Notes under the pieces: model-generated | What the model was told of the DNA's origin: nothing | Seen by the model: only the letters and a program-made list of their open reading frames with translations | The model's database searches: none | Source: Anaerolineae bacterium | Lineage (GTDB): Bacteria; Chloroflexota; Anaerolineae; S140-20 | DNA: 64,000 nucleotides | Assembly: GCA_027021705.1 (NCBI GenBank) | Contig: JALUTT010000181.1 | Span: 11,784 to 75,783, forward strand | Direction of reading: 5' to 3' | Translations under genes and position numbers: made by a program | Shown here: in pieces, positions 36,860 through 53,403 of the stretch | Numbering within the stretch: the first letter of the stretch is position 1 | Layout of the letters: each line of letters starts with the position of its first letter

Positions 36860-39800
36860 CGTGGCGCACCTCTACGGTCACTTCCGCGTCGTCGGATAAT
36901 TCGCTCAAGGCTCCCCAACCTGTTGCGGGTTGGAGATTGACGGCTTCCAGCGCCTTTCGTAGAGCGCCAAAGCGGGCCTTGAATCTCAGCGGCTCGAAGG
37001 CCGGTGGAACAGGCGGCTTCTCCTCCTCCTGGTGCAACGTCTGGAGCTGCGTCAGTAGTTGGCTCCGCGGCATCTGCCCGGTGATGTACCGGGCGATGGC
37101 CTCCCGGGCTATTGCTTGCGACTCGGACTTCCGCAGCCCCTGGTACAGGTCCCGCATCTCCACGTCCTGCAGCCGGCCGACCATCTCGCGTGCCGCTTGG
37201 AGCATCTCCGGCAGGCTCTGGGGCGGAGCCGAGACCTTGGTCAGCCGGCGGATGCCGGCTTCCGAGGTAGGCTCTGCCAGCGCCCGGTCAATTGTTTCCA
37301 GGATGGCCGCGACCTGCTGCAGAGCCTGCTCCAGCTCTCGCGGGGCGCCCCCCAGCGGCTTGGCCGCTTCCGTCACCGCCTTGCGCAGTTGTCGGTATCC
37401 CTGCTCCTGTTGGGTGAAGAACTGCTGGAGGGAGGCCCAGGCCGCGTCCTGACGACGCACGCCGGGCTGGTCGGGGAGGGAGCCGGCGCCGATGGCCGCG
37501 TAGAAGGCGCTGAAGGCGGCCCACTCCCCGTGGCCCACCCGTTGGCCGGGGGTGAGCAGGTCGTTGCTGTGCAGGCTCAGTTGAGCCGGGTCCTCCACGG
37601 CCAGCGGCCCCCGCCCGCGCACAACCCGCAGGTCGCGAAAGATCACCGTCAGCCGGATCAGGAAATCGGCCAGGAAGGGTTGCAGGCCAAACTCTCTTCC
37701 CAGCCGGTTCTGCAGCTCCTTGACCCGCACGCCCTCCCCGCCTTTCAGGGCCTCCTCGATGGTCTGCACGTAGGGGGAGTTGCCCAGGTCCAGGGCATAG
37801 GCGGTGCCGGCGGGCTTGACGATGCGCAGGGGCATCCCGTAATGGGCAGCGTAATCGTGCGGCGGCCCCACCTCCGGCCCCACCCGGCCCTCTCCCTTGA
37901 CCAGCGCCCGGTAGAGGCTCTCCAACGCCTGGGAGGTGACGTCGGCAGTGAACTCGGGATGTTGACGGAAGCGGGCGTCCAGCAGCCGCGCCCCCAGGTC
38001 CTTGAGAGCCTCCTGCAGCGTGGCCCCGGCCGAAGGGTTCTCGCCGATGCTCACCGAGGCGCTGAGCCGGCCCTGGCTGTAAAGGGAGGCTAGGCCGGCC
38101 AGCAGGCTCTCCCGCAACTGAAAAGCCGCGGCCGTCCAGCTCTCCGTCAGCCGGCGTCCCTCCTCGCCGCTGTACTTCTCGGCGATGTAGGCCGTGCCCG
38201 CCGGGCTCTCGGTGAGGAAGAGGATGCGGGCCAGGTTGTCCAGCTGTTGACGCAGTTGATCGTCGGCCTCCTTGGGGATCCACACCGCGCCCGGCACACC
38301 GTTCTTGGGCGGCTTTGACGGCACAGGGTCGCCGGGGAAGCGGGGGAAGGCGATCCAGACGGTGAACTCCGCCTTGGGGTCGGGCGGGGGAAGGTGGCCG
38401 GCGCCCGTCTCCACGGCTTGGACTGTCCCCGAGCGGTTGGTGCCGCGCCACTTGATGTTCAGCTTGCGCCGGCCCTGCAGCTTGTCGGTGCCGAAGAGGT
38501 TGTTCAGAAGCCCCAACACGGCCTGGCGGCGTTGCTCGGTCACGTCCTGGCTCACCTTGCGCAGCTCCGCCATAGGGTCGAGCCCCAGGCTCAGCTCCAC
38601 CACCACCGCCTCGCCCTCGCGCTTGAAGGTGCCCAGCAGCCGGTCGCAGAGGAGGTCCACGACCTCCTCCAGTTGCTTGCGGGCCAGGATGACCACCTGG
38701 GCGTTGAGCACGGCGGCGTTGAGGGCCGCGATGACGGCGGGGGTCATGCGCCCGCGCAGGGGCGTCCCCTTGTCCGTCAGTTGGCCCAGGATGATGCTTT
38801 CCGCCACGGCCCGCCCTCGGGCGATGCGCTTGGCGTGGCCCAGGAAGTGTTCCTCCAGAAGAGGAACGACTTTGTCACGCATGATCACTTTGGCTGCCTG
38901 CAGCGCGGGCCGGTCTTTGAGCTCTCCCTCGGAGGCTTGCTCGATGAGGTAGTGGAAGGCGCGGTGGTAGGGAATGAGGGTGCCCAACGGCTCATCGGCC
39001 AGGTCGAAGAGCATATCGTACATGACGCTGATGGCGGTGCGTTCGCGGCTCAGCATGTGGGTCACCGAGACCAGGGTGTCCACGATGGCCGGATGGAAGG
39101 GGTAGAGGGCGCGGACGGCTTCCTCAAAGCGCTTGTGGCCGTAGAGTTGATGGAGCACCTCCAGTTGTTCGCCGGGGATCTGGGCCAGACTGGCTTTGAC
39201 CGCTTCGTCCAGGGCTTTCTTGCGCCCCTTTACCGGCTTGAGGACGCGCTTGCCCAGCACCTCGTACAGGTCCACGTCTTGGATGTCTACGTCCCGTCCC
39301 GCGAAGCGCCCCTTGACATTGTCTAGGATGTCCCGGCCCACGTCGCGCACCACGTCCTCCAGGGGGGCGTGGCGCACCACCAGGGCCCAGACGGGGAGGG
39401 CGGCGCCCTCGGCCTCCAGAAGGGCCTTGAGTTCGACCATGGGCCGCGTGCGGTCTTTGGCGTTGATGAGGAAGAGGGTGAGTTCGTCAATGAGGAACGT
39501 GACGGCGGTGAAGCCGTGGTGCTTCAGGTGGGCGGTGATGCGCTTCATGCCCTCGGCCATCTCCACGGCGAAGGCGCCACCGCCCACCTCAGAAGGTAAG
39601 GCGATGTGCGAGGCGATCTCGCGGGCCAGGAGTTCGCGGCCCTGGGGCGTGGCCTTCTGGGCCTCGTACTCCTGGCGGGAGGTCACCACCAGGCTGCGGT
39701 TGAAGAGGGTGTCCCAGAGGGCGGGGGTGTCGGCGGCCAGGTCCTCGAACCATCCGATGACGCGCTGGAAGTAGGTGAGTTCCACGGGGGGCAGGCCCTG

Positions 39801-40232
39801 GCGTTCCAGTTCGCGGGCGACGGCCTCGTAGAGGCCCAGGCGGAAGTCGTCGGGGCGGTCCAGGCTGTTGAAGGGCACCACGAAGACGGGGCGTTTCTCC
39901 AGGATGGCGCGCACGTCATCCGAAAGGCCGGGGATCTCCCGCGCCCAGGCGGCGGACTCCCCGCGCAGGAGCATGCCGGCGAAGGAGAGGAAGTGGGACT
40001 TGCCGGTACCGAAGGAGCCACTGACCCAGACCCCCTGGCCGGGGAAGCCCTTGTCGGCGGACTCGGCCACGCTGCTCACCACGCGCCGCAGCCCCTCGGC
40101 CACGGTGTCGGTGATGACGTACTCCCGGGCGTGGAAGACCTTGCGCTCCTCGTCGTTGATCTCGCCCACCTTGACCACCAGGGGTGGTTTGGTGGGTGGG
40201 ATAGCGATGACGTCACGGATGTGGAGGGTCAT
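36846..40232 (-). CDS. PglY/BrxC-family large ATPase
   Basis: MTLHIRDVIAIP, YVITD, SGSFGTGKSHF, FLIDEL, YPFHP, ERTA; overlaps pglZ by 14 bp. Confidence 0.85.
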   Translation of the reverse strand: MTLHIRDVIAIPPTKPPLVVKVGEINDEERKVFHAREYVITDTVAEGLRRVVSSVAESADKGFPGQGVWVSGSFGTGKSHFLSFAGMLLRGESAAWAREIPGLSDDVRAILEKRPVFVVPFNSLDRPDDFRLGLYEAVARELERQGLPPVELTYFQRVIGWFEDLAADTPALWDTLFNRSLVVTSRQEYEAQKATPQGRELLAREIASHIALPSEVGGGAFAVEMAEGMKRITAHLKHHGFTAVTFLIDELTLFLINAKDRTRPMVELKALLEAEGAALPVWALVVRHAPLEDVVRDVGRDILDNVKGRFAGRDVDIQDVDLYEVLGKRVLKPVKGRKKALDEAVKASLAQIPGEQLEVLHQLYGHKRFEEAVRALYPFHPAIVDTLVSVTHMLSRERTAISVMYDMLFDLADEPLGTLIPYHRAFHYLIEQASEGELKDRPALQAAKVIMRDKVVPLLEEHFLGHAKRIARGRAVAESIILGQLTDKGTPLRGRMTPAVIAALNAAVLNAQVVILARKQLEEVVDLLCDRLLGTFKREGEAVVVELSLGLDPMAELRKVSQDVTEQRRQAVLGLLNNLFGTDKLQGRRKLNIKWRGTNRSGTVQAVETGAGHLPPPDPKAEFTVWIAFPRFPGDPVPSKPPKNGVPGAVWIPKEADDQLRQQLDNLARILFLTESPAGTAYIAEKYSGEEGRRLTESWTAAAFQLRESLLAGLASLYSQGRLSASVSIGENPSAGATLQEALKDLGARLLDARFRQHPEFTADVTSQALESLYRALVKGEGRVGPEVGPPHDYAAHYGMPLRIVKPAGTAYALDLGNSPYVQTIEEALKGGEGVRVKELQNRLGREFGLQPFLADFLIRLTVIFRDLRVVRGRGPLAVEDPAQLSLHSNDLLTPGQRVGHGEWAAFSAFYAAIGAGSLPDQPGVRRQDAAWASLQQFFTQQEQGYRQLRKAVTEAAKPLGGAPRELEQALQQVAAILETIDRALAEPTSEAGIRRLTKVSAPPQSLPEMLQAAREMVGRLQDVEMRDLYQGLRKSESQAIAREAIARYITGQMPRSQLLTQLQTLHQEEEKPPVPPAFEPLRFKARFGALRKALEAVNLQPATGWGALSELSDDAEVTVEVRHDAEA

Positions 40233-40256
40233 GATTGTCACCTCACAACTCACAGA

Positions 40257-43200
40257 TCATAGCCAACTGCGTCTCTCCCATTCCTCTTCCGCCTGTTCGC
40301 GTTCGATCATTGACTGGAGCAAGTCAACCATGCGGCGTGCGAAGAGACGGACACGGAGATACTCATCCTCGAGCCACGGAGATATCGCTTCCAGGCGTTT
40401 TTGATAGAACGATACGAATCCCGAAATAACGCCGGGGGTGCTACTGATCGCTCCTTCAACTTCACCGAGTACCTTCCGATCATCAGTGCGTCGGATGATC
40501 TCACGGCTCAGCTTGTAAAAGGCATCCCCTTCGTTGAATTCCCGTAAGATAGTGGCTGTAGCCCGGAGCTTTTCGACCTCATCGGACTCAACCCACTCCG
40601 TGAGCACCGCGTAGAGAGTCTTATCAAGGCCGCCGGCGATGGCCTTCAGTACATAGGGGGCTTCCCAGCGGAACCAGAAGTTTTCGCGCAGCATCCAATT
40701 GCGAACACGCCGTAGAACGTCAGGGTACTCTTCGCTCTCGCGAATGCTTTCCATAGCTCGTGCAAACTGGAAGGGTACGGGTTCGTATCGTCTCTCTTGG
40801 GCCTCACGTTCATAAGCTATAGTGATGCGCTGCTCGATGAAGTCTATCACCTGCATCGGAGCAATTTGGCCCAATCTGTCCAGGCATCTTTCCACATGAA
40901 AGTCAAGCTGCGGTAATCGTCCAAAGTGCTGAATGATCTCGAGAAAGTCTTGTGGGTCCTCGAACTCCACAGCCCAACCCTCCCCTGTGCTATCCGACCA
41001 TGATAGTACCTCAGCAATGTGCCGCAAGACAGCTTCGTCGCCACGAGCCGCAATAGTTTTGAGAACCTCAACCGCGAGAGCAGGGTTATGTGGTGCGTAT
41101 TGCCGTGTCAGCCACACCATCTCATGATCCAGGGCCGCTGTATTACAAGCCACGAGTTGGCGTAGCATCTCCCAGTCTTCATCCTCCATTTGACGCCAGT
41201 CCACAAACCGGAAGCTATGCGCAGCAGCCAGCCAGAGGATCGCATCGCCGCTGGTGGTCCAATGTTTGAGGTATCTTTGCGCTATCTCGGGGACGCTTTT
41301 CCGCAATCCGGCAATCACGAGCCCAAGGTGATGTTTAAGGGTCAACTCTTCAACTACGGCGCGGTCTATGAGCTGCTGGGCCAGATCAGGATGCTGTTCA
41401 CCCAGACGCTGCAATAGCCGATTGAGCCAAGTAGTACCTGTTTCGCCAACAGTACGCGCTTGATGAGCAATTGTCTCCAAGTCGCGCAAAGCTCGATCAA
41501 AAGTGTCTGGCTTAAGCTGACCGAGGTAACGCTCGACAGCCTCCTGGCGCCGCCGCTCGGCTTCCCGCCAATCCAATTCCTTGTCCGGTTCCTCCGCGTC
41601 CCGGCGATGCCATCCAACCAGCACTCGGTAAAGTTGATAGAGTTGATGGCTGTTAAGCCGCTCACTAAGGCGGTCCAACGCCTCATCTTCATAAGCAGCC
41701 CACCGTCTGGCATGCCAGAGCCATTCCGAGATTGCGTCCAGAACGGGAAGGTCCGCTGTCTCAACCACGTCAGAGAAGAAACGGGCAGTATTCACACAGT
41801 CAGGTCGAAGCCATTCACGGATTTCATCTGGCACGCGAACTATTGAGGGGAAATGTGGGATCGCTCCATCCAGAGCCTGAACAATACGGAGTCGCTCAGC
41901 GGGAGAAGTTGCTTGACGATATGCGTTATAGAGGATGTCTAGCGCCTGCTGTCGGATGTGTCTCAAGGGCTCGGCAGGAGTGAGCAGGCCCCGATGGAGG
42001 ATCACTTTGAAAGGTTCCGTTGGATCGGCCTCAGCGCTATGTAACTCCATCGACAACATTGCTTCTACCAGTTTCAAGGCCAGGTCGAGGTTCTCCGTGA
42101 AATCCTCAGCCAGCCACCGGGGAATGGCTTCCAGAAGCGTCAGTTGCACAGCATAGGGCTTGCGCGGCTTAAATTCGGCAATTTCAGTCAACACTTTGCG
42201 CGCTTCTTCTCTCACATAGGCATAACTCGAATCGTGAGGGCAATATCTGGCAAGTTTATGCAAATAGGTGATAGTATCTCGCAAGGCGCTATACTGGGTG
42301 CGCTTCAGTATTTCGACAGCCTGACCCAACACCATCTCGTGGCTAATCTCATAAGCACCACCCCAAGGGGCACGATAGGTCTCGGGAGGCTGTTCTCTGC
42401 CATCCACGATGCGGGCGACGATCGCCAACGTATCGTCGGCTCTCAGATAAGCCACGTTCTGCAACCAATCGAGAATGGCATAGCGGGCTATGTTGCCTTG
42501 GGTATCGATAGCCCGAGACAGTTCATCGAGTCTGCGACCCAAGAGCACACCTGCTTCACGGGATTCTCCCTTGACCTCTGCCTTGGCCAAGTTAGTCAGG
42601 ATTTCTTTGGCTTTCAGATCGAAGAATGGTTCGATGACTTGTTTTTGGTAGTCGGCGCGTCGAGTTGTGGGGTCAAAGTAGTGGCTCACCAGGATGTGGT
42701 CGGCCAAGACCTCAGAGGCGATCCGAATGGTCTGCCAGTAGCGATCTATTAGGCCTGACGCTTCCAGTCGTGTAACAATGCGTTCTTCTTCAGATGGTGA
42801 GATACCGACGACCTCTTGCACACGTTGGCGGAGAGTGTCGTTGGTCAGCTCAATTGTGCCCAGAGCAGCAAGGATTTCGAGATAGTGCACATATCGATCA
42901 TCGTAGCCAGCCTCGGCCAAGTCACGGATGAGTTCATGAAAGTAGCGGGAAAGCACTTCATCTCTGGTAAGTCTGGTTACATCTTCGCCACGCTGAACCA
43001 GGCGTGCGCCCAATTGGGCGAGCAGCGGGTTACCTTCGGCCACAGCAATCAGTGCCCGACGCGCGTGCTGATCCTCGATATGGTAAGGTTCGCTTTGAAG
43101 CAGACGATCGATGTCAGCATTTGTCAGTGGACCAAGTTCCAAGTAAGCGATTTCATCCCCTGAGATTTGAGGGAAGCGAGCTGCTATATACTCAACGAAT

Positions 43201-43850
43201 ACGCTGCGTGTGCTGAGAATGAGTTTCACCTTACCGGCGTAGTCTGGATTAACCAGTACCTCGCGAAGGTGAGAAAGCGGCGTAAAACGATGGGCGTCAT
43301 CCACGACGATTACGTGCTGTTGGTCCCGATCGAGAGTAGCCAAGTCGTATTCGATGCTTTCAGCTTCAGTGCGGGCGTACCACAGTTTGACATCTTCGGG
43401 AACGATCTCTGACAAGGCGAGTAGCAATCGAGTCTTACCGATACCCCCAGGACCATGAAGAACAATGATACGTTTTTGTTCTTGGAGCCATGCCGCCACT
43501 TGCTGAAGAGTCTGCTCCCGTCCCACCATTTCTCCCCTGTAGCATCCAAGCGCAGTTTGCTCAATCCGCACTGCAAAATCCTGAACTGTGAGTAAGGATC
43601 GAAATCCAGTATGAACGGCCTGCCATATAGCGACTGCATCTGGGCCTTTGATAATACAGACTATGTTGTTATCACCAGTTATAACGACAAGGTCGTGCGC
43701 GTCTCCTCCTAATGCCACAGCCCGATCACCAGTGGCAAGGGTAATCCGTCCTGTTTGAAGGGCTTGGCGCAAGGTGGCGATGTCGGCATCAGTGTAGGTG
43801 CCGGCTGCAATGCGGTCGAGAACACGCTTCAATTCGTTAAACTCCGTCAT
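40257..43850 (-). CDS. Large STAND-type ATPase: short helical (EAD-like) N-terminus, amyloid-like motif, long helical C-terminal sensor
   Basis: HGPGGIGKT, VIVVDDAH, LILSTR, EGNPL; N-terminal LATGDRAVALGGDAHDLVVITGDNNIV. Confidence 0.8.
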   Translation of the reverse strand: MTEFNELKRVLDRIAAGTYTDADIATLRQALQTGRITLATGDRAVALGGDAHDLVVITGDNNIVCIIKGPDAVAIWQAVHTGFRSLLTVQDFAVRIEQTALGCYRGEMVGREQTLQQVAAWLQEQKRIIVLHGPGGIGKTRLLLALSEIVPEDVKLWYARTEAESIEYDLATLDRDQQHVIVVDDAHRFTPLSHLREVLVNPDYAGKVKLILSTRSVFVEYIAARFPQISGDEIAYLELGPLTNADIDRLLQSEPYHIEDQHARRALIAVAEGNPLLAQLGARLVQRGEDVTRLTRDEVLSRYFHELIRDLAEAGYDDRYVHYLEILAALGTIELTNDTLRQRVQEVVGISPSEEERIVTRLEASGLIDRYWQTIRIASEVLADHILVSHYFDPTTRRADYQKQVIEPFFDLKAKEILTNLAKAEVKGESREAGVLLGRRLDELSRAIDTQGNIARYAILDWLQNVAYLRADDTLAIVARIVDGREQPPETYRAPWGGAYEISHEMVLGQAVEILKRTQYSALRDTITYLHKLARYCPHDSSYAYVREEARKVLTEIAEFKPRKPYAVQLTLLEAIPRWLAEDFTENLDLALKLVEAMLSMELHSAEADPTEPFKVILHRGLLTPAEPLRHIRQQALDILYNAYRQATSPAERLRIVQALDGAIPHFPSIVRVPDEIREWLRPDCVNTARFFSDVVETADLPVLDAISEWLWHARRWAAYEDEALDRLSERLNSHQLYQLYRVLVGWHRRDAEEPDKELDWREAERRRQEAVERYLGQLKPDTFDRALRDLETIAHQARTVGETGTTWLNRLLQRLGEQHPDLAQQLIDRAVVEELTLKHHLGLVIAGLRKSVPEIAQRYLKHWTTSGDAILWLAAAHSFRFVDWRQMEDEDWEMLRQLVACNTAALDHEMVWLTRQYAPHNPALAVEVLKTIAARGDEAVLRHIAEVLSWSDSTGEGWAVEFEDPQDFLEIIQHFGRLPQLDFHVERCLDRLGQIAPMQVIDFIEQRITIAYEREAQERRYEPVPFQFARAMESIRESEEYPDVLRRVRNWMLRENFWFRWEAPYVLKAIAGGLDKTLYAVLTEWVESDEVEKLRATATILREFNEGDAFYKLSREIIRRTDDRKVLGEVEGAISSTPGVISGFVSFYQKRLEAISPWLEDEYLRVRLFARRMVDLLQSMIEREQAEEEWERRSWL

Positions 43851-45289
43851 CAGTGGTCCCTCTCTTCACCTGTTTCTCTGGCCAAACGTGCTAGGTTATG
43901 AGACACGGTGTTTGCCAGTTCCTGATCGCCGGCCTGGATAGCTAGCCGTAAAGCCTCAGCGTAGAGAACTCGGGATCGAACGATGTCACCTTCAAATTGA
44001 CAGGCCAAAGCCAAGTTGTTGAGTGCAATGGCTTCACCTTTCCGATTCGCGAGGCTCTGAAAAAGCTGGCGCGCTTGTTCAAGGTTTTCACGGGCCAGAT
44101 GAAACTCTCGTTGGTGCAAATGGATTTCACCGATTGCTGCCAACGTATGAGCCTCGGCGTTCTTGTTGTTCAGCATACGCCATAGACTCAGTGCCTTCTT
44201 CCGATACGTGAGCGCCTCATCGAAGGCGTAGCGGGTCTGATGGATCGCAGCGATATTATCCAGCAGCGTAGCCTGTTCAACTTTGGACCCTAGCCCTTCA
44301 AAGAGTGTTAACGCTCGCTCGTTGTAGTCCAAAGCACGTTCAAAATCACCAATTGCACTGTAGAGGCTGCCCAGATTGGCTAGAGATATTGCTTCCTGCA
44401 AAGGAGCTCCGATCTCACGGAAGATCTCCAGGGCCTGTTCGCTATAAAGCCGGGCCTTATCAAGTTGTCCTAGACACTGCGCCAGTTCACCCAGGTTTCC
44501 CAGAGCAACCGCTTCATGGAAGCGATGACCCGTCTGGACAAAGAGTTCCAGTGCCCTGGAACCATAGGTTAACGCTTTGGAATACCACGCATCTCGTTCA
44601 GCTGATGAAACAACGTCTGCTTTGTTTCGACACGTAATTGCCAGATTGTTTAGTGTCGAGGCTATGGCGACCTGATCATCTTGAGTACGGTATAAAGCCA
44701 GTGCTTGTTCATAGAACGAGATGGCATCGTCCCATTGCTCTAAATCGGCATAAGCCCGGCCCATGTTCTGCAAAACGGTTGCTTCGCCTGAAGAGTCACC
44801 TTCGACACGGAAGAGTTGCAATGCTTGTTCGTAATAGTGCAAGGCTCCAGTTATTTTACCCTCAGCCTGGGATACTAATCCCAGCCCGTTAAGAGCCCTG
44901 GCCTGGCAAGGACGGTCATCCAATTGACGAAAGATGGTCAGCGCCTGCTCATAACATTCACGGGCTCGAGACCACTCGCTCAGTGTATACCACGCAGCAC
45001 CCAGGTTATTCCAGAGAGCACCCACGTCGTGGGTTTGACCCTGGTTTTGCGCGGCAGCGAGCCCGCGTTGATACCATGCAATGGCTTCCCGCCACAAAGC
45101 GCGTTGCTCAAGAAAGGGGCGCACTGCCCATACGTAGGCTAATATTAGCCCTGCATCACCGTTGATGTCGTTCACCCAGGTCCAAGCACGGCGAATTTGC
45201 TCCAATTCACCTTCAAGCCGCTGCCAGTCACCAGGGTTAGATTGGATCAGGGAAAGATAATAGTACGCGTACCGTTCCCAGGCACTCAC
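43850..45289 (-). CDS. TPR protein 3 with N-terminal NLR arm segment
   Basis: ~40-aa repeats (NNLG..Y...A...YEQAL..FR); N-terminus shared with the two upstream TPR genes. Confidence 0.9.
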   Translation of the reverse strand: MSAWERYAYYYLSLIQSNPGDWQRLEGELEQIRRAWTWVNDINGDAGLILAYVWAVRPFLEQRALWREAIAWYQRGLAAAQNQGQTHDVGALWNNLGAAWYTLSEWSRARECYEQALTIFRQLDDRPCQARALNGLGLVSQAEGKITGALHYYEQALQLFRVEGDSSGEATVLQNMGRAYADLEQWDDAISFYEQALALYRTQDDQVAIASTLNNLAITCRNKADVVSSAERDAWYSKALTYGSRALELFVQTGHRFHEAVALGNLGELAQCLGQLDKARLYSEQALEIFREIGAPLQEAISLANLGSLYSAIGDFERALDYNERALTLFEGLGSKVEQATLLDNIAAIHQTRYAFDEALTYRKKALSLWRMLNNKNAEAHTLAAIGEIHLHQREFHLARENLEQARQLFQSLANRKGEAIALNNLALACQFEGDIVRSRVLYAEALRLAIQAGDQELANTVSHNLARLARETGEERDH

Positions 45290-45291
45290 GT

Positions 45292-46815
45292 TTAACCGGT
45301 CGTTGATATCTGCTCCAAACGTTCTCGAAGTTTGGTCAGGTGAAAAGCATGTTGCTCTACCTCAGGATCACCGACTGATCGTTCGTAATCCACAACAATT
45401 TGGAGAAGTTCCACTGCACGCGGTAAATCGCCTGCGCGTTCGTATAACCGGCTTAGGTCCCAGGTGTAGATCGCTTCCCCTCCCTTATCTCCGATCTCGC
45501 GAGCGATATGTCGTGCCTGTTCATAGTACTCTAATGCCTTCTGGATATCTCCCAACTGCCAGTAGACCAATCCCAGCCGGCTCAACCGGATGCTTTCTCC
45601 CCATCTATCGCCTATGTCACGAGCAATCTTCAAGGCTCGTTGGTAATATTCGATAGCCTTGGACGTGTCGCCCAAATCCTGCAGAATGCGGCCCAGATTG
45701 CTGAGCCACGCCCCCTCGTTTTGCCGGTCACCCACACGGTGAGCAATTTCCAGGGCTTGTTCGTAACAGTGTGTAGCTTCTTGCCACTCGCCCAGGTCAG
45801 CGTACGCCATTCCCAGGATACCCAAGCGAGCCCCTTCTGCTTGTAAATCTCCAATCTCCCTGGCAATCTCCACAGCACGTTTAACGTACTCAATCGCCCT
45901 GTCCGGATCGCCCAGAACAAGATACGTTCGGCCCAGGTTACTCAGCCACGTCCCCTCACTCAGCCGGTCACCAATGTCACGGGCTATCTGCAACGCCTGC
46001 TTGAAACATTCAATAGCCTTTTGCCAGTCTCCCAGGTCAAGCCAGCCACGCCCCAGATTGCCCAACCAGACCCCCTCATTTCGACGGTCACCCGTGTCAC
46101 GGGCAAACCGAAGAGCCCGCTCATAGTACGAGATAGCCGTTCGCACTTCTCCCAGGTCAGCATAGGCGAGACCCAGATTCCCCAGATCAGCTCCTTCGCT
46201 GCGCCGATCCCCTATCTCTCGATCAATCGCCAATGCTTGTTCGAAGCAGGAGATGGCTCGTTGGGTCTCTCCCAAGCTCAGGAGGGCCAACCCAAGATTA
46301 CCTAGCCAGATAGATTCCTGTTTGCGGTTCTGTAACTCGTGGTGAATCGTCAGGGCCGCCTCAAAGTGCCGGATAGCTTTGTCAATCTCCCCAATGTCTA
46401 AGTAAACCAGCCCCAAGTTGCCCAGACGGCTACCTTCTGCGCCCCGATCACCAACATCCTGTGCAATTCGCAGAGCCTGTTCATAACACTCGATGGCCTT
46501 GCGTGCTTCGCCAAGGCGGTAATACGCTAATCCCAGGTTCGCCAACATTACACCCGCTACCTGATTACCGTTCGGAAGTGTTCTTGCCACCACCAAGCCT
46601 CGCTCATTCCAAGCGATGGCCTCCAGCCACAGTCCGCGCATCTCCTGAAAGGGGAAGAAAGCTTGAACGTAAGCCAGGACCAAATCCTTGTTCTCCTCTT
46701 TGCTCACCCAGGCCCAGGCACGACGAATCTGGTCGAGCTCACGTTCGACCGCTTGCCAATCGCCGTTTTGAGTCACTGCCAGATAGTAGCGCGCGTGCCG
46801 CTCACGGGGGCTCAT
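45292..46815 (-). CDS. TPR protein 2 with N-terminal NLR arm segment
   Basis: Regular GDRxxEGxxLGNLG repeats; start ATG 46815 overlaps the upstream stop (ATGA). Confidence 0.92.
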   Translation of the reverse strand: MSPRERHARYYLAVTQNGDWQAVERELDQIRRAWAWVSKEENKDLVLAYVQAFFPFQEMRGLWLEAIAWNERGLVVARTLPNGNQVAGVMLANLGLAYYRLGEARKAIECYEQALRIAQDVGDRGAEGSRLGNLGLVYLDIGEIDKAIRHFEAALTIHHELQNRKQESIWLGNLGLALLSLGETQRAISCFEQALAIDREIGDRRSEGADLGNLGLAYADLGEVRTAISYYERALRFARDTGDRRNEGVWLGNLGRGWLDLGDWQKAIECFKQALQIARDIGDRLSEGTWLSNLGRTYLVLGDPDRAIEYVKRAVEIAREIGDLQAEGARLGILGMAYADLGEWQEATHCYEQALEIAHRVGDRQNEGAWLSNLGRILQDLGDTSKAIEYYQRALKIARDIGDRWGESIRLSRLGLVYWQLGDIQKALEYYEQARHIAREIGDKGGEAIYTWDLSRLYERAGDLPRAVELLQIVVDYERSVGDPEVEQHAFHLTKLRERLEQISTTG

Positions 46816-48236
46816 CTCGTCCTTCCCCTGCGCATGAAACGCCGTGCTATTTGTGCAAGACGAGCAAGAGGTTTCTGGATGTTTCGCTTCGCTGCCGGCC
46901 CCGTTTGTTCCTGAGCTGGCCACTCAGGCGATTCATTGACCTGTATCAAGGTGCTCTCTCGTTCCAGAACGAGACTGCGATTCCGGCGAATAACCGCGCT
47001 AAGGTGTTCATCTCCGATTTCTTGAGCAAGGCTCAAAGCCTGTTCATAATACATTACCGCCCGATGTTCCTTGCCTAGACCTTCGGCAAGATTGCCCATT
47101 GCCGCCAGCAAGCGCGCTTCCATCTGCTTCTGTCCTATTTCCCGGCTTATGCGCAACGCTTGCTCGTAGTATCGAGCTGCCCTTTCGAGTTTGCCCAGAC
47201 GATGATAAGCCTGTCCAAGGCTCGCAAGCCGACCACCTTCGACAACCCTGTTGCCTATGTGGCGTGCAGCAACCAGGTTCTGCTCAAAACACTGAATAGC
47301 ACGCTCAATCTCACCTGTTTCCAGGTAAATATCACCAAGACCGCCTAATAGATCGCTCTCTTGAATCCTGTCACCCATTAAACGCGCCAAATTCAATGCA
47401 TCCTCAATAAGTTCTACCGCCTTTGAAAGGTTACCTTCTATCCGAGCAATACTTGCCAGGCTATACAAAAACCCTATCTCCAGGTCCTGATCTCCTGCCA
47501 AGAGAGCGTGCTTCAATCCTTTTCGGTATGTTTGGCGTGCTTTGCGCCAATTGCCAACATCGAGGAGTGCATTCCCTCTCATCTGGAGTGCAAGCGCGAT
47601 AGATCTATGATCACGCTGCTTAGAAGCAAGAACATACATCTGTCTTTGCAGTCTTTCCGCCTGACGTAGATTACCCAGGCGACGGAAGGCGCTTTCCATG
47701 CTCATCAAGGCAACAAACTCTGTCTGCCAGTCTTTGGCGTTCTGCGCCAGAATCTGTGCACGTTTGTAGCATTCAAACGCTTTTGTTGTATCCCCCATCG
47801 CCAAATAGGCACTACCAAGCCGCAAAAGTATCAGGGATACAATACGGTTCCCGTGTTGCTCTAGAGACACGGATGAGAGGAGCGAATAGGCTCGCTCACA
47901 GCAATCGGCAACCTGCTTTGAATCGCCCAGGTTGTCGTGGACTTCACTGAGTCGCAAAAGAGAGAAAAGTTCGGCGATTTTGTCCTGTTTGCTCCGCGTT
48001 ACCTCTAGCTCGCGCTGTGTCCATTCAAGCGCCTCTTTCCACAGACCGCGCAGTTGTAAGTGCGGATAGAACGTTTCTACGTAATCCGATAGCAGTTGCG
48101 GATCCCCTTGAGCAGCAACCCAATTCCACGCATGCCTTATTTGCGGCCATTCGGCGTCGAACCATTGCCAATCCTTAAGATGGGCTTTGGCATATTCCAG
48201 GTAAAATCGAGCGTGTCGTTCCAGCACCTTGCTCAT
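46812..48236 (-). CDS. TPR protein 1 with N-terminal NLR arm segment
   Basis: TPR repeats; ATGA-coupled to the NB-ARC gene. Confidence 0.9.
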   Translation of the reverse strand: MSKVLERHARFYLEYAKAHLKDWQWFDAEWPQIRHAWNWVAAQGDPQLLSDYVETFYPHLQLRGLWKEALEWTQRELEVTRSKQDKIAELFSLLRLSEVHDNLGDSKQVADCCERAYSLLSSVSLEQHGNRIVSLILLRLGSAYLAMGDTTKAFECYKRAQILAQNAKDWQTEFVALMSMESAFRRLGNLRQAERLQRQMYVLASKQRDHRSIALALQMRGNALLDVGNWRKARQTYRKGLKHALLAGDQDLEIGFLYSLASIARIEGNLSKAVELIEDALNLARLMGDRIQESDLLGGLGDIYLETGEIERAIQCFEQNLVAARHIGNRVVEGGRLASLGQAYHRLGKLERAARYYEQALRISREIGQKQMEARLLAAMGNLAEGLGKEHRAVMYYEQALSLAQEIGDEHLSAVIRRNRSLVLERESTLIQVNESPEWPAQEQTGPAAKRNIQKPLARLAQIARRFMRRGRTR

Positions 48237-49381
48237 AGTCCCATCTTTTCCATCATTTCCGCCGCATAGTCGGCCAGCAGCGCATGCATCCAGTAGCGCT
48301 CGCCCCGACGCTCCACCAGACCGCGTTGGATAAAGCGCGAGATGGTCGCTTCAGCTTCTTCCACCGAACATTCCCACACATGAGCAGCAGCCTTGATCTC
48401 CCACGTAAGTGGCTCGCCGCCGAAGACGGCCAGCATGGCAAAGCGTTCTTGGTCGGTCTTGCTCAGCCGCTCCACGCTCATCCCCAGAATCGCCTGAAGG
48501 GAGACGGGTTGGTCTTCGGCCAGACCTAGGCGTCCTTCCGCCTGGAGCAGCTGCAAACGGGCTTCCCGGTGCTCCATGAGCTCATCCAGCAGCCGTTGCA
48601 TCCGCGTTGGCACGTCAGCCTCGCTGGCTAGCAACCGCCCTGCCAAGGTCAGAGCCAAAGGCAGGAACTCTAGCCGTTCACAGAGACGCATTGCGTTTTG
48701 CTCATCAGCGGCAACAGCTTCGGGTGCCAAGCGGCGTAATAGTGCCAGAGCAGCCTCCGGTTTCAGCACATCTACCCGCAGTGTCCGTCCGCGTGTGGCC
48801 AATGTATAAGCAATGGGTGCCTCACGGGTGGTAAGGACCGTACGACAACGAGGACCGGCGACCATGAAGTACTGACCGTGGGTTACCTCCCAAACATCAT
48901 CCACAATCAGCAGCACGCGTCGGTGATAAAGAACGGCCCGGAGACGATCACGACAGGCATTCTCATCGCGCTCTGGTAGCAAATCTACCCCAAGGGCCCG
49001 ACCCCACCCATCGAGGAGGATGCGAATGGTTGGGTTAGGCCCCAAGGCTACCCAAAGCACACCATCGGGGAAGAGCTTGGGAATGATCTCTAACCGTCCT
49101 AAGGCGATGGCTAGGGTTGTCTTGCCGATGCCGCCCATCCCACGCAGAGCTACTGGGGGGATATCAGTCGCCTGCTCATCATCAAGAGCCAGCAGGTCGA
49201 ACAAGCGAGTCAGGTCCTCGTCACGGCCGAGAACACCCTGGGGTGGGAGCGGCGGCGTCATAAACGGTGGCGGCGTTCGCGTTGCTGGCATACCGACGGT
49301 AGCAGCCGCTTGGTCACCGATAGCTAGGCCGTAGACGGTGCCATGAATCGTCACCTTGTGCCGATCGAGTTCGTTGCTCAT
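48233..49381 (-). CDS. Stand-alone NB-ARC protein with N-terminal amyloid-like motif and no sensor domain
   Basis: GMGGIGKT, LLIVDDVW, LTTR, FLPLAL (GLPL), YWMHALL (MHD); stops about 15 aa after MHD; GAGGAG RBS. Confidence 0.9.
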   Translation of the reverse strand: MSNELDRHKVTIHGTVYGLAIGDQAAATVGMPATRTPPPFMTPPLPPQGVLGRDEDLTRLFDLLALDDEQATDIPPVALRGMGGIGKTTLAIALGRLEIIPKLFPDGVLWVALGPNPTIRILLDGWGRALGVDLLPERDENACRDRLRAVLYHRRVLLIVDDVWEVTHGQYFMVAGPRCRTVLTTREAPIAYTLATRGRTLRVDVLKPEAALALLRRLAPEAVAADEQNAMRLCERLEFLPLALTLAGRLLASEADVPTRMQRLLDELMEHREARLQLLQAEGRLGLAEDQPVSLQAILGMSVERLSKTDQERFAMLAVFGGEPLTWEIKAAAHVWECSVEEAEATISRFIQRGLVERRGERYWMHALLADYAAEMMEKMGL

Positions 49382-49437
49382 AGACTTCTCCTCATGGCCG
49401 TTCCACTAGCCGCCCAGCGGTTTTGCCTATGGAACGC

Positions 49438-49980
49438 TCAGGATTCGCTTGCTTCTCCAGATGCTGGTGGTTCAGCTCCTTCTACGTTCACATTAACCAG
49501 TGCCTGGTTGCCAAGAGCCATCCCCCTGGCTTCGCCGACATTCACGCTGTATTTCCCCTGTTGCACCACGTTCTGGTCACCGGTCACGATGATGCTGCCT
49601 TCAATCTTTCTAGCTGCCACGCTGTGTTCACCGCTAGCAATTACGGTTACGCCCATAGCCTTTGCCTTTTCCCACAATTGGGCCACTTCAGCAGCCAGTT
49701 CTTCGTCCTCGGACAGGATTTTCCTGAGTTGCAGGCGCAGGGCGGCTTGGGCGTCCCCATCTTTCGGCGCTGCGGCCACATCCTGCACTGCTTCCCGTGC
49801 CGCTGGCTTGGCCTCCACCTTGGAGCGCAGTTTGCCCCACAGCGCCTTGGCTTTCTCCCAGGCGTCGCCACCCAGTTTCTTGCCTGCTTCCTCAGTCGCT
49901 CTTTCACCTGCCTTGAGCAGGTAAGGCAAGAAAGGGGTAAGAAAAGCGGCTACGTCCTTCGCCAGCATTGCTATGTCCAT
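49438..49980 (-). CDS. Small helical (Bell/HeLo-like) protein with two C-terminal amyloid-like motifs
   Basis: Hydrophobic N-terminal helix (AAFLTPFLPYLL), ~105-aa helical domain, then a G/V/I/N/Q-rich tail; AAGGAG RBS. Confidence 0.7.
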   Translation of the reverse strand: MDIAMLAKDVAAFLTPFLPYLLKAGERATEEAGKKLGGDAWEKAKALWGKLRSKVEAKPAAREAVQDVAAAPKDGDAQAALRLQLRKILSEDEELAAEVAQLWEKAKAMGVTVIASGEHSVAARKIEGSIIVTGDQNVVQQGKYSVNVGEARGMALGNQALVNVNVEGAEPPASGEASES

Positions 49981-49995: not shown

Positions 49996-52900
49996 TTATC
50001 CCATCACCACATACGGATACGGCTCCACGTCCCCGATGATGCTCCGCAGCCCCTCCCGTACCTCCGGATCCTCGATGTCCGGCGCCTCTTCCGGCAAAGT
50101 GATGAGCCGGGCCACCCAGCGGTAGAAGGGCGTTTTGTCCTGGGCCTCTTCCGCCAGGGTGAGGAAGATGTTGGCCTGGGCCTCCGGGCTCCACCCCGTC
50201 CAGCCGTACAAATCCCGATTGACGCCGTCGAAGCGGAAGAAGCGCTCGTGGAGGACGTCTACCTTCTTGGGCTTGCGGCCCACCAGCACTTTCTCCTCGT
50301 CGAAAGGGATGGGCCGGCAGTCCCAGTCCATGCACTCGCGCACGAACTGCTCCGCCGAAATGGGCCGGCCGCCGTAGTAGACCGCCCGCAGGGGCTCGAA
50401 CTTGGGGTTTCGCGCCAGAATACCGGCGACCTCTGCCGGGGTGAGCGGCCGCTCCCGCAACGGCGGCTGGGCGGCGAAGATGTCTTCGATGAGGTCGCAG
50501 ATGTAGTCGCGGATTTCGAACTGCATCTCTTTATGCCAATCGAAATCGTGAAGGAGATCCGAGGATTCCCAATCTGCTAATGCCGAGACGACCTCCTCTT
50601 CAAGTTGATAAATGTCTCGCACGCAGCCATCGACTTCTCTTTGTAGTTCCACCCACCTTTGAGCAAGTTGCTCAAGATTGCCGCGATATGCTTGCTGGCG
50701 AGTTTGTAAGTCGGCTAGTGACTCGAAATGCACGTCTCGTATCAGGTGATACGGATGTAACGCGTTGATCTGCTCCACGAGGCTTGTCATTTCTTGTGAA
50801 AGTGCTATCAGTGTCTCGGCTGCAGTTCCATCTGGCACTGGGATCGGGAACCCTTTGATGTGATGGCCATAGATGTCGAAATACTGCTGGCGCACCCGGC
50901 TTGCCGTTCTCGCCACGTAGAAAGCAAACAAAGACGAATTCATCAACGCTGCCAAATGGAAAGTAAGTTCCCCTTCATCCAATTTCGGGTACGCAACCTG
51001 GGCTGGATGATCCACCAAGAATCGGCCTATACTGTCACCGAAGGCATGTGGGCGCAACACCACGCTGGGCCAGGCAATCTTCGGCACGCCCAGGCGGGCG
51101 TTGGTCTGATGGAGCCGGAAAAAGGGGATGCCAGCGTCCTTGTAAGTCATCCGTTCCCAGGTGGCTCGCGCCCAAAGATATTCCTTGTACCTCAGTAGGT
51201 AACGGTAAGCGTTGGGATACCGTTCGGCGAAATCGGCGATAAGTTCGCCTGTCTCCTTATCATGGGTGTAAAGCACATACGTCTGCTCCTTCTTCCGGTT
51301 CCCGTGCCAAGTGACGGTCCAGTTGCGGATGTTCTTCCCCCGCAGGCAGGGGATGCAGATTTCCCGCTCCAGCTTGTTCCGGCGGATGAAGCTCTCCGTG
51401 ATGTAGTCGCAGAAGACCGGGTCGGCGTTGGTCATGAAGTCCACACCGATGCGCGCGTAGTCGGCCAGGGTCTTGTCGGAGGCGGCCCGGATTTTGCCCA
51501 GCAGGTCGCGGGCGCTGCGGCGCAGGGTCCAGGGATGAGAGCGGAAGTGCTCCTGCCGCTCCCAATAGTGACCGGCATAGTCCTTGAAGACGGCACCCCC
51601 TCCCCGGCCCTCCCACCCCCCTCCGGCTCCCCCCTGAGAGGGGGGAGTGAGCAGGCAGTGCAGGGCGGCCCATGTCTCCTCTCGCGTCCGGCCCGCCGGC
51701 TGGTAGGTGGCCAGCACCTCCACCGGCGCATCGGCGGGCACGGGGGCATCGTCCTCCGGCCGCTGCACCACGATGAGGGCGGGGTAGGCGCCGGCCTCGA
51801 AGACCTGGGCGTCGGTCAGGTCGGCGAAGAAGAGCAGGCGGTAACGCTCGCCCGCCAGCAGCGCGGCCAGCTTCTTGCCATAGGCCTGCTTGGCGAACTT
51901 GCCGCTGGTGATGTAGCCCAGGTAGCCACCGGGCACCAGCAGTTCCAGCCCCCGTTCGACAAAGGGTACCGAGAGGTCAAAGTTGCCACTGGCTGTCTTG
52001 TAGTTTGTGCGCAGGTACTGGACGAAGTCCACCCGCTCCCAACTGCCGTTCACCGGTGCGACCACCTCGGCCCCCTGACGGTGGATGCGCACGTAGGGCG
52101 GGTTGGCGTTGACCACGTGGAAGCCCTTGGCCAGGGCGTCCCGCAGGTCCACCCGCAGGTGGGTTAGCTCCCGGCCGTACCAGCGGGCCACAGGGTCCGT
52201 CTCCCGGCGGGGCGGCCGGCCCCACTCGAAGGTGGGCAGCGTTTCCTGCTGCGGCGGCTTGATCAGGCTGTTGGCCGTGTAGACGTTGAAGGTGATGTCC
52301 TCGCCCCACTTTGAGACCCCCCTCCGGCTCCCCCCTACAAGGGGGGAGGGAGAGGCCAGGCGAACGCCTTCCAGGAAGAGGCGGAAGAGGGTGATGCGGG
52401 TGGCGAACTCGGAGATGTCCACGCCGAAGAGGTTGTTCTCCACGATGCGCTCGAAGCGCTCCAGGGGCGTCAGGTCCGGGTCCTCGCGGGCCAGGTGCGC
52501 GTCCAGGCGGCGGTAGGCACGCACCAGGAAGTGGCCGGTGCCGCAGGCGGGGTCCAGGTAGCGCAGCTCGTACACGCCGAACTCCCACACCGCCGGCTCC
52601 AGGGTGCGCTCCAGCAGGAAGTCAATGATGAAGTCAGGGGTCGTGTAGTAGCCCAGCCGCTTGCGCTCCTCGGCGTCCATCAGGTGCTCGTAGAGGTCGC
52701 CCAGGGCGCGGGTATCCATCTCCCGCAGGGCGGGCAGATGGCCCACGGTGTCCAGCAGGTCGCGGGCCACCTCGTCGGAGGGCGGGATGAGCTCGTAGCC
52801 GGTCTCCTTGAAGAGGTCGTAGGCCACGGGCAGGTAGGCCAGGTCGCGCACCGCGTACTCCAGGTAGTCGGCCCAGGTGAGGCGGGGCGCCAGGTCGCGC

Positions 52901-53316
52901 AGGGTGCGGAAGATGTCCCCGCGCAGGGCCACTTTGCGGGCCGGGGGCGGGAAGAGGCCGTAGTCCTCGGCCACCTTCAGGAAGAGGGCCTTGAGGACGT
53001 AGACGGTGGCCGCGGTGTGGACATACTGCGGCTCGTTGACGGCCACACCCTGTTGGCGGGAGAGTTCCTCGCACCGCGCGGCGACCTCCCGTTGCAGCGT
53101 CGCGTCCCCGCGGAGGGTGCGGGCCAGGTCGGCCTCCAGCCGGCGGTGCAGCGGCTTCAGGCGGGTCACCAGGTCGTTTAAGGCGGGGGATGGCAGAGTG
53201 AGTTCCGGTTGCCGTGCCCGGCGCCCACCCCGGGCTCCCTGCCCCTTGCGGCCGCGGGAACGGCGCTGTCGGCCCTTCTTCTCGGGAACAGGGTTGCCGA
53301 AAAGGTCCCGGTCCAT
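49996..53316 (-). CDS. pglX: PglX-like adenine DNA methyltransferase (Eco57I/type IIG-like architecture)
   Basis: LGDLYE, YYTTPDFI, YLDPACGTGHF, FGVDI, VNANPPY, then a TRD region. Start placed at ATG 53316 (53385 also possible). Confidence 0.85.
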   Translation of the reverse strand: MDRDLFGNPVPEKKGRQRRSRGRKGQGARGGRRARQPELTLPSPALNDLVTRLKPLHRRLEADLARTLRGDATLQREVAARCEELSRQQGVAVNEPQYVHTAATVYVLKALFLKVAEDYGLFPPPARKVALRGDIFRTLRDLAPRLTWADYLEYAVRDLAYLPVAYDLFKETGYELIPPSDEVARDLLDTVGHLPALREMDTRALGDLYEHLMDAEERKRLGYYTTPDFIIDFLLERTLEPAVWEFGVYELRYLDPACGTGHFLVRAYRRLDAHLAREDPDLTPLERFERIVENNLFGVDISEFATRITLFRLFLEGVRLASPSPLVGGSRRGVSKWGEDITFNVYTANSLIKPPQQETLPTFEWGRPPRRETDPVARWYGRELTHLRVDLRDALAKGFHVVNANPPYVRIHRQGAEVVAPVNGSWERVDFVQYLRTNYKTASGNFDLSVPFVERGLELLVPGGYLGYITSGKFAKQAYGKKLAALLAGERYRLLFFADLTDAQVFEAGAYPALIVVQRPEDDAPVPADAPVEVLATYQPAGRTREETWAALHCLLTPPSQGGAGGGWEGRGGGAVFKDYAGHYWERQEHFRSHPWTLRRSARDLLGKIRAASDKTLADYARIGVDFMTNADPVFCDYITESFIRRNKLEREICIPCLRGKNIRNWTVTWHGNRKKEQTYVLYTHDKETGELIADFAERYPNAYRYLLRYKEYLWARATWERMTYKDAGIPFFRLHQTNARLGVPKIAWPSVVLRPHAFGDSIGRFLVDHPAQVAYPKLDEGELTFHLAALMNSSLFAFYVARTASRVRQQYFDIYGHHIKGFPIPVPDGTAAETLIALSQEMTSLVEQINALHPYHLIRDVHFESLADLQTRQQAYRGNLEQLAQRWVELQREVDGCVRDIYQLEEEVVSALADWESSDLLHDFDWHKEMQFEIRDYICDLIEDIFAAQPPLRERPLTPAEVAGILARNPKFEPLRAVYYGGRPISAEQFVRECMDWDCRPIPFDEEKVLVGRKPKKVDVLHERFFRFDGVNRDLYGWTGWSPEAQANIFLTLAEEAQDKTPFYRWVARLITLPEEAPDIEDPEVREGLRSIIGDVEPYPYVVMG

Positions 53317-53403
53317 GGTCACACCGCCCCCTTCAAGCGCTTGATTTCCGGCTTGAGCGCCTTCGCCAGGGAGACCATTAGACATAACCGCTCTTCCCCT
53401 ACA

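Follow-up and report, generated by a model that had tools for sequence, protein, structure and literature searches.

A Bell-like effector with a two-class motif tail and its candidate ATPase partners in a gene cassette within a BREX operon

Architecture of the cassette

The stretch of DNA analysed here, 64,000 nucleotides of contig JALUTT010000181.1 from an Anaerolineae bacterium (hereafter the window), carries on its minus strand a 9.7-kb row of genes, 40257-49980, that combines a small Bell-like effector, an NB-ARC protein with separate TPR sensors, and a STAND ATPase. The tail of the effector bears two motifs of different class, one resembling the STAND ATPase's N-terminal region and the other the extreme N-terminus of the NB-ARC protein. 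The row begins with the 180-aa effector (49438-49980), which consists of a Bell-like helical head and a composite β tail, is preceded by the ribosome-binding site GGAG 7 nt ahead of its ATG, and has 718 homologues at E<=0.01. After a spacing of 56 nt, on the same strand, follows the 382-aa NB-ARC NTPase (48233-49381; Pfam NB-ARC 1.6e-24). Three open reading frames (ORFs) for TPR sensors come next: ORF 1 of 474 aa (46812-48236; Pfam TPR_12 3e-32), ORF 2 (45292-46815; TPR_12 9e-78), whose true start is likely the ATG at 46815, and ORF 3 of 479 aa (43850-45289; TPR_12 1.9e-54). The row closes with the 1197-aa STAND NTPase (40257-43850), composed of an EAD10 N-terminus, a P-loop NTPase and a long helical C-terminal region. 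The effector, NB-ARC and STAND genes lie where a previous reading of the window, made from the sequence only, had placed them.

The genes are packed end to end, their stops and starts overlapping or nearly touching. ATGA overlaps are found at the NB-ARC/TPR1 and TPR1/TPR2 junctions, TPR2 and TPR3 are separated by a gap of 2 nt, and the stop of TPR3 overlaps the start of the STAND gene by 1 nt.

The NB-ARC protein scores 86.9 bits against its Pfam model, is covered by no PADLOC model, and contains the Walker A motif GMGGIGKT and the Walker B motif LLIVDDVW. It stops just past the winged helix (...MEKMGL) in 6/6 orthologues and itself lacks repeats; the TPR ORFs that come after it are separate and number three or four, both in the window (43850-49381) and in L114, L116, L005 and L119 (L-numbers denote loci of relatives carrying related genes). 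TPR ORFs 1-3 share a head of about 75 aa, ERHARYYL..DW..E..QIRRAW.WV, and their repeat arrays are mutually only 25-33% identical. This arrangement suggests that one nucleotide-binding module could dock alternative TPR sensor subunits. As the sequence-only reading had proposed, neither the NB-ARC protein nor the STAND ATPase has an enzymatic domain in Pfam.

The two tail motifs and their counterparts in the ATPases

The effector is divided into a helical head (aa 1-108; 49657-49980, minus strand) with a hydrophobic first helix and Asp2, motif 1 (aa 109-140, GVTVIASGEHSVAARKIEGSIIVTGDQNVV; 49561-49656, minus strand) and motif 2 (aa 141-166, QGKYSVNVGEARGMALGNQALVNV; 49483-49560, minus strand). 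Motif 1 is of the BASS cluster C09 type, ASGERSVA..GS.I.TGD.N, and reaches 60 bits with its own hidden Markov model (HMM), while motif 2 follows the pattern GKY.V.h....G.A.G[DN] and corresponds to the β core of EAD10. From 120 listed homologues one HMM each was built for the head, for motif 1 and for motif 2. The two motif models are distinct, neither matching the other segment at E<10 save for a negative-scoring overlap. Among the 120 listed homologues, 54 are 140-149 aa long and end right after motif 1, whereas 55 carry motif 2, the forms of about 141 aa being without it. The earlier division of the tail into two distinct motifs is supported, and the motifs are separable.

The counterpart of motif 1 is a segment of the STAND ATPase at aa 38-64 (LATGDRAVALGGDAHDLVVITGDNNIV; 43659-43739, minus strand). 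In a single BLASTP comparison, effector aa 97-139 align with STAND aa 22-64 with 14/44 identical residues (E 0.021), and within this alignment motif 1 faces STAND aa 33-64. The motif-1 HMM scores 26.1 bits on STAND aa 38-64, with an i-Evalue of 2.4e-6 when 80 loci and the window are searched as six-frame ORFs, and of 1.6e-5 over the 67,536 six-frame ORFs of the genome. The counterpart of motif 2 lies at aa 7-29 of the NB-ARC protein (RHKVTIHGTVYGLAIGDQAAATV; 49295-49363, minus strand). Here the HMM match is weak (10.5 bits, i-Evalue 0.27 over the 80 loci plus the window). Residues H13, G14, V16, Y17, L19, A20, G22, D23 and A25 of this segment are invariant in 6/6 orthologues (74-87% identity), and the linker that follows, aa 27-38, varies among the six.

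As a null independent of the HMMs, each motif was aligned by Smith-Waterman (SW) with the first 80 aa of each of the genome's 6754 ORFs that reach 200 aa or more. Motif 1 places the STAND ATPase at rank 4/6754, the three entries above it being other large STAND-like proteins, and motif 2 places the NB-ARC protein at rank 3/6754. Both crossed pairs do poorly, motif 1 with NB-ARC at rank 2422/6754 and motif 2 with STAND at rank 22. Both pairings named in the sequence-only reading are thus recovered, the second with a weaker HMM match. A complex prediction of effector aa 105-172 (79 alignment rows) with NB-ARC aa 1-40 (6 rows) scores 0.02 where the mark is 0.32, a result that is uninformative either way.

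EAD10 in the STAND ATPase and the effector

The STAND N-terminus, aa 1-54, matches Pfam EAD10 at 37.4 bits, over the gathering cutoff of 24.1; matches to nSTAND_NTPase5 and AAA_16 are weak. A canonical EAD10 of about 77 residues consists of two helices (LLDRLAAGT.TEAD.A.LR.AL) followed by a β segment, VVQIGKYNVQIGAGQRIHIGD, and is exemplified by L005:1980-2573 (84.5 bits, aa 3-75) and L114 (73.7 bits). In the window STAND a motif-1-type segment comes after the EAD10 helices, and in L005, L016 and L114 a motif-2-type one; two alternative β segments therefore follow the same EAD10 helices. On the effector, the Pfam model aligns aa 132-162 to its positions 33-63 at 20.7 bits, under the 24.1 cutoff, and because this is exactly the β segment of EAD10, motif 2 is identified with the EAD10 β core. 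EAD10 matches occur in 38/79 members of the effector family at E<=0.1, the best at 1e-7. Copies of EAD10 are paired on core NTPase and effector in the window, in L005, L114 and L016, and across the genome.

The first 150 aa of the STAND ATPase are 33-39% identical to the N-termini of ATPases that stand beside short-form effectors at 10 loci. The best match to its N-terminus is in L026, where the effector has the same 'SVAAQ/R..GS' subtype of motif 1 as the window effector. Homologues of the STAND body are present in 4/400 other genomes of the phylum, and one of those found carries an Mrr_cat nuclease at the N-terminus in place of EAD10, an exchange that fits a role of EAD10 as output adaptor.

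Modular tails in related loci

Co-occurrence of motifs and neighbours was scanned in six frames over the 80 genome loci and the window. Long-form loci, whose effectors carry motif 2, entered the counts if their downstream flank reached 450 bp (n=7: the window, L001-L005 and L016), and short-form loci if it reached 1 kb (n=33); L007 and L077 of the long form and L008, L009, L011, L014 and L042 of the short form were left out for short flanks. L025, called long-form by the HMM, was dropped from the counts, its 'motif 2' being unrelated sequence. A motif-2-type neighbour is present at 7/7 long-form loci vs 0/33 short-form loci (Fisher p 5e-8, or 1.4e-4 when the seven long-form loci are reduced to three partner types; both values are generous, since related loci lack independence). 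The long-form partners comprise orthologues of the NB-ARC protein (window, L002, L005), NACHT proteins (L001, L003, L004) and canonical EAD10 (L005, L016). A motif-1-type neighbour occurs at 22/33 short-form loci and contains a Walker A motif, detected by regular expression, in 16 of these 22. Motif 2 is supported as a modular add-on whose presence tracks motif-2-type neighbours.

Covariation of the motif pairs across loci, a check named in the sequence-only reading, is present for motif 1, similarity being higher within cognate effector/ATPase pairs than across non-cognate ones (n=22, mean SW 69.0 vs 64.0, permutation p 0.0013).

The same modules recur in fused and rearranged forms. In L111:11568-13175 (minus strand) one ORF joins the head, through a single intervening motif, to an NB-ARC orthologue (75% identity). 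In L118:1379-3478 a single protein comprises the head, motif 1, motif 2 and a CHAT protease, and is located just upstream of an 87% identical NB-ARC orthologue. Peptidase_C14 caspases carry the same tail of motif 1 and motif 2 in L002:6591-7613 and L005:819-1925. AAA_16 ATPases of about 475 aa in L005 (12710-14140), L002 and L116 have the motif-2-like segment at the C-terminal instead of the N-terminal end. In related cassettes, too, the TPR ORFs are followed by a second ATPase that bears an EAD10-type motif, namely an EAD10-NACHT protein in L114 (1.2e-20) and the AAA_16 proteins of L005, L002 and L116. Several ATPases per effector are common (L018, L030, L073, L079, L005, L114). As a separate observation, L002:9983-11683, from a chromosome assembly, joins a long-form effector and an NB-ARC orthologue in one 566-aa frame; this frame holds four ambiguous residues (X) and may reflect an assembly error, not a true fusion.

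The effector head and its family

The effector family extends over Chloroflexota, Cyanobacteria, Acidobacteriota, Methanotrichaceae and others. Head residues D2, L6, F13, P16, P19, Y20 and others, as well as the hydrophobic character of the first helix, are kept in at least 90% of 79 family members. In the AlphaFold2 model computed from the 79-sequence alignment, helices span residues 3-108 with pLDDT of about 85-90 and the tail, residues 112-180, stays below 50; a single-sequence prediction was poor (pLDDT 54), and the alignment-based model was used instead. Among the residues of the tail, G, N, Q, V and I are over-represented and K, P and L under-represented. In the ESM Atlas the head aligns at TM 0.95/0.89/0.88 to hypothetical proteins of about 140 aa from Actinomycetota and Cyanobacteriota, and no model in Pfam, NCBIfam or PADLOC covers it; a Bell model as such is absent from Pfam and NCBIfam. 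The head is called Bell-like, as judged from its sequence and predicted fold, because Asp2, the hydrophobic first helix and the helical structure fit the features described for Bell domains, namely a small helical domain whose second residue is acidic and whose first helix is hydrophobic (Dyrka 2020, 10.1101/2020.01.06.895854). Family tails that, by eye, recur in the published Bell-side set (C09_s010, C09_s051) support this indirectly.

Two candidate relatives of the head were rejected. The Rx coiled-coil domain appears in the Foldseek/VIA-align comparison at rank 50 with E 5.8 and is taken as chance, and a link to HetE-N, prompted by an Atlas cluster in which 26% of members have Pfam HetE-N, finds 0/79 family members matching at E<=0.1. 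Some family members of about 220-245 aa (P0020, P0041, P0042, P0046, P0078, P0097 and P0109) carry a KTSC domain (Pfam PF13619) after the tail.

Position within the BREX operon

The cassette is flanked by BREX genes, named by PADLOC and Pfam and all on the minus strand, in the order pglX-[cassette]-brxC-pglZ-brxL. The PglX methyltransferase (49996-53385; PADLOC PglX 7.7e-83) precedes it, and BrxC/PglY (36846-40253; PADLOC BrxC 6.9e-62), PglZ (34394-36859; PADLOC PglZ 1.7e-36) and BrxL (32806-34611; 2e-111) follow. Only 15 nt separate the cassette from pglX and 3 nt from brxC, and because these gaps are so small the cassette is probably co-transcribed with BREX. GC content at third codon positions (GC3) is 0.50-0.62 in the cassette genes ("all seven") vs 0.82-0.88 in the BREX genes, with 0.82 in pglX and 0.87-0.88 across 32806-40253 (BrxC/PglZ/BrxL), and a dip in GC is also visible. 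We read 40257-49980 as a single foreign cassette inserted in the BREX operon between pglX and brxC.

Among 40 relatives compared in search of an empty site, none had a PglX match at E<=1e-50. Upstream of pglX lie four ORFs (53404-55687) that match nothing in PADLOC or Pfam, and neither BrxA nor BrxB. The usual BREX order has brxC before pglX, so the order in the window, with pglX first, is unusual. Elsewhere in the window, a 1123-aa ORF at 20864-24235 (minus strand) joins SHMT (Pfam 1.9e-125, aa 126-466) and GCV_T (6e-83, aa 721-984); such a fusion of SHMT with a glycine-cleavage T-protein is unusual, if the ORF call is right.

A wider motif network in the genome

The sequence-only reading had inferred a single membrane-targeting effector wired to two independent receptors as an OR gate. 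This wiring was overstated: the cassette is not a private two-input gate, and further receptors of both motif types are encoded elsewhere in the genome (G000, whose other locations are given as C-numbers). At least nine other large proteins have a motif-1-type segment (C144, C77, C88, C162, C36, C178, C73, C117 and C133). C144:47675-52105 (plus strand) is an NB-ARC protein whose EAD10 N-terminus closely resembles that of the window STAND, C88:7911-11069 (plus strand) is a motif-1 receptor of this genome-wide network, and C77:110237-115627 (plus strand) is a receptor whose N-terminal region combines the two motif types. C36:3-2672 (minus strand) is an all-in-one protein composed of a Bell-like head, motif 1 and a NACHT-like ATPase. 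Motif-2-like segments are found in C40, C51, C52 and C77. Two more effectors end in a motif-1 tail: C120:92074-92556 (minus strand), a small helical protein of 161 aa, and C175:2287-3105 (minus strand), a trypsin-like protease with a zinc ribbon. Given these further receptors, the term dual-address hub suits the window effector better than that of a private gate with two inputs.

Proposed mechanism and alternatives

The layout, with a motif shared between a Bell-like effector and an adjacent, collinear NB-ARC protein, is of the NLR/Bell amyloid-signalling type that had been suggested from the sequence. On balance we lean towards reading the locus as a foreign NLR-type cassette for cell death or abortive infection, in which a two-motif effector tail is read by two ATPases. 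The head would be a Bell-like helical executioner, held inactive by the disordered tail. The two sensors of the cassette without an effector domain of their own would be the split NB-ARC/TPR NLR, addressing motif 2, and the EAD10-STAND protein, addressing motif 1. Ligand-driven oligomerisation of either ATPase would cluster its N-terminal motif; the clustered motifs could then form a cross-β nucleus that binds and templates the matching part of the effector tail, and this templating would free the helical head to target and damage the membrane. Under such either/or logic, activation of one sensor alone would make the effector toxic, possibly in response to phage. The Bab/Agp pair with BASS11 in Escherichia coli is the precedent for the templating step.

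A wider generalisation is more tentative and, taken as a whole, doubtful. Bell-type tails might constitute a modular 'address bus', in which β units act as largely orthogonal templating codes that are gained and lost as cassettes. One killer would then read C09/BASS6-type and EAD10/BASS3-like codes in a many-to-one OR network, fed by the split NB-ARC with its three TPRs, by the STAND protein and by a dozen unlinked sensors, and would provide second-line suicide inside BREX.

Several results weigh against the two-ATPase reading. On the side of motif 2, the direct BLASTP alignment of effector aa 137-166 with NB-ARC aa 3-31 (9/30 identical, E 0.064) is weak alone, the i-Evalue of the motif-2 HMM on the NB-ARC protein rises to 1.8 genome-wide, and the effector-side motif-2 HMM misses the NB-ARC N-termini of L002 and L005 altogether. 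The crossed pair of motif 2 and STAND scores SW 32 at rank 22/6754, so the two classes are not clearly orthogonal. On the side of motif 1, the partners in the window are not specially matched: their pair ranks 13/22 among the cognate tests. Effector motif 1 fits other receptors better (C144 61, C77 59, C133 55, C88 52) than the STAND ATPase (47), and the STAND N-terminus fits other effectors better (C120 SW 80, C175 SW 67 vs 47 for its own). A motif-1 ATPase is nearby in 1/7 long-form loci, namely the window only, and in 0/6 of the others, and a motif-1-type EAD10, searched with the STAND N-terminus, was found elsewhere in just 2/5 other long-form genomes. The assembly has 183 contigs and an estimated contamination of 4.5%, and some partners in trans could therefore belong to another organism. 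The Bell, HeLo or MLKL kinship anticipated for the head finds no convincing solved structure and no Pfam family: Foldseek against the PDB gives no match at E<=0.001, VIA-align reaches a best Z of 5.4 to unrelated helical proteins, the PDB sequence-profile search has a best E of 0.25, and there is no significant match to a solved pore-forming or HeLo/MLKL-type structure.

Part of this evidence would also follow if motif 1 and motif 2 formed a single extended adaptor, as in the HET-s pseudorepeats, that serves the NB-ARC/TPR receptor only, with the STAND protein merely travelling along and signalling to other motif-1 effectors or to none. We regard this as an unlikely account, although it explains why the other long-form loci have only motif-2-type partners nearby (6/6), why caspase and CHAT effectors bear motif 1 and motif 2 as one unit, and why the STAND N-terminus fits the C120 and C175 effectors better than the effector of the cassette. 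The receptor C77, with both motif types in its own N-terminal region, and the repeated Bell-side motifs described for BASS1, 4 and 6 point in the same direction. Set against it are the motif-1-only short forms, which are common and stand beside motif-1 ATPases at 22/33 loci with a covariation signal; motif 1 is therefore a working address alone. The STAND gene, moreover, has the foreign GC3 of the cassette and a start that overlaps the TPR3 stop, and L026 pairs the same motif-1 subtype with the nearest relative of the STAND N-terminus.

The same wiring could operate without amyloid, the EAD10 adaptor forming discrete homotypic complexes, for example by β-strand augmentation on an oligomerised ATPase, in the manner of death-fold adaptors. 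The receptor EAD10 is indeed an α+β domain of about 77 residues with two helices ahead of the β segment (L005:1980-2573), the window STAND has the helical part, and Kaur et al., who draw the analogy with Death domains, propose that adaptors couple homotypically (PMC7159879, PMC8195603). Yet the effector tails and the NB-ARC N-terminus consist of the β segment only, without helices, the effector tail is predicted to be disordered as a monomer, and its composition matches that of BASS motifs. Motif 1 also belongs to a motif set that includes fibril formers (BASS1 and BASS3, Dyrka 2020; BASS11, Ibarlosa 2024), in which C09 is not stated as tested. Coupling of this kind is quite improbable here.

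That the small protein is a scaffold or regulator instead of a killer, its tags bridging NB-ARC and STAND in an AND logic or holding both inactive, is very improbable, for although the head matches no solved pore-forming structure and is fused in L118 to a CHAT protease that would be the real effector, it occupies the N-terminal effector position of all-in-one NLR-like proteins (L111, L055, L062, L069, L032), has the size, Asp2, hydrophobic first helix and taxonomic spread described for Bell domains, and in the short forms carries one tag only.

Returning to the reading of two ATPases addressing one tail: if the tail units are separate templating codes, the cassette and its short and long relatives constitute a natural test bed for the specificity of amyloid-type signalling, and could show how immune networks join several sensors to one executioner. 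If the motifs cross-seed freely, the finding reduces to another catalogued Bell/BASS pair.

Comparison with known systems

The kind of system is already known, from Bell/BASS-NLR pairs and from EAD coupling. The sequence-only reading knew of no described example of this architecture, and this holds in part. The accessible parts of the Bell/BASS and EAD literature contain no description of a two-class tail whose second unit is gained or lost with matching receptors, nor of both receptor classes in one cassette, and those of Dyrka 2020, PMC12261475 and PMC9815663 describe no composite tail or multi-NLR Bell locus. The part that does not hold concerns the components: the motifs themselves are catalogued (C09, EAD10), and many-sensor wiring is the EAD principle. 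Two other features are also unusual, namely the split of the receptor into an NB-ARC protein and its three TPR subunits, and the insertion that makes an NLR cassette a rider within a BREX operon.

Bell/BASS-NLR pairs share with the cassette an effector with an acidic residue 2 (here Asp2) and a hydrophobic first helix (Dyrka 2020), a collinear, tightly spaced NB-ARC/TPR partner, and a G/N/Q/V-rich motif of about 25 aa common to the effector C-terminus and the NLR N-terminus. They occur in the same phyla (Chloroflexota, Cyanobacteria, Actinomycetota, Methanotrichaceae), and the G/N/Q/V/I bias of the cassette tail is the bias reported for BASS motifs (Dyrka 2020). The cassette differs in that its effector tail consists of two different motif classes in tandem and not of pseudorepeats of one, as described on the Bell side for BASS1, 4 and 6 (Dyrka 2020; PMC8086366), in that each motif class has its own ATPase in the cassette, and in that four separate proteins, one NB-ARC and three TPR, together make up the NLR.

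Motif 1 is already catalogued. Cluster C09 of the published Bell-side set (PMC8086366 supplement) contains, by eye, near-identical family tails: C09_s010 corresponds to the short form, and C09_s051 to the long form, the latter entry being truncated at 38 residues, shortly into motif 2. The size of C09, about 111 sequences, makes BASS6 its probable published equivalent. Motif 2 is catalogued within EAD10 and was not found as a BASS family in the accessible part of the set; the strings LAIGD and GVAIGD have 0 occurrences in the part of the published motif file examined (PMC8086366). Motif 2 resembles cluster C03, the RHIM-like BASS3, whose entries show a G-[VI]-Q-[VI]-G-D/N core followed by N.Q.N.F (PMC8086366). 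Compared by eye, the GKY.V.h....G.x.G[DN] head of motif 2 recurs in C03_s134, C03_s051 and similar C03 entries, but motif 2 has A[LI]G for Q[VI]G and no N.Q.N.F tail, and so falls outside the C03 core. Of the BASS, RHIM and EAD10 affinities raised for the motifs by the sequence-only reading, those of motif 1 to C09 and of motif 2 to the EAD10 β core are therefore found, and that to the BASS3 core is not. The comparison links the EAD10 nomenclature of the Aravind group with the BASS nomenclature of the Saupe/Dyrka group, the segments named in both being the same.

In the 'EAD principle', several sensors feed one effector via a shared adaptor (Kaur 2020, PMC7159879; 2021, PMC8195603). The cassette resembles such systems in its STAND N-terminus, which passes the EAD10 (PF19954) cutoff, in the alignment of motif 2 to the β core, in having copies on core NTPases and on effectors, close by as well as at other sites of the genome, and in the STAND relatives that carry a nuclease in the place of the adaptor. 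It departs from them in that the effector tails and the NB-ARC protein carry the β segment without the EAD10 helices, and in that the helices precede the motif-1 type in the window STAND and the motif-2 type in L005, L016 and L114. The accessible parts of Kaur et al. describe several EADs on one core protein (VMAP), not two variant segments on one effector.

The Bab/Agp system of E. coli is a Bell-related/BASS11 pair for which abortive infection via amyloid templating is established experimentally (Ibarlosa 2024, 10.1101/2024.11.07.622273). Like the cassette, it combines a small Bell-related executioner with a sensor that shares its terminal amyloid motif, in a defence context; unlike it, Bab/Agp has one sensor and one motif, and that sensor is not a STAND ATPase. 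Citing Kaur, the same study notes that the TPR-GreA/B-C-PIN sensor architecture is often linked to defence domains such as EAD10. In the HET-S/NWD2 system of Podospora, as in the window, the effector tail has two β units and the NLR N-terminus one templating unit (Dyrka 2020). There, r1 and r2 are pseudorepeats that serve one NLR, whereas the two units of the window tail are distinct at the level of their HMMs and match different ATPases.

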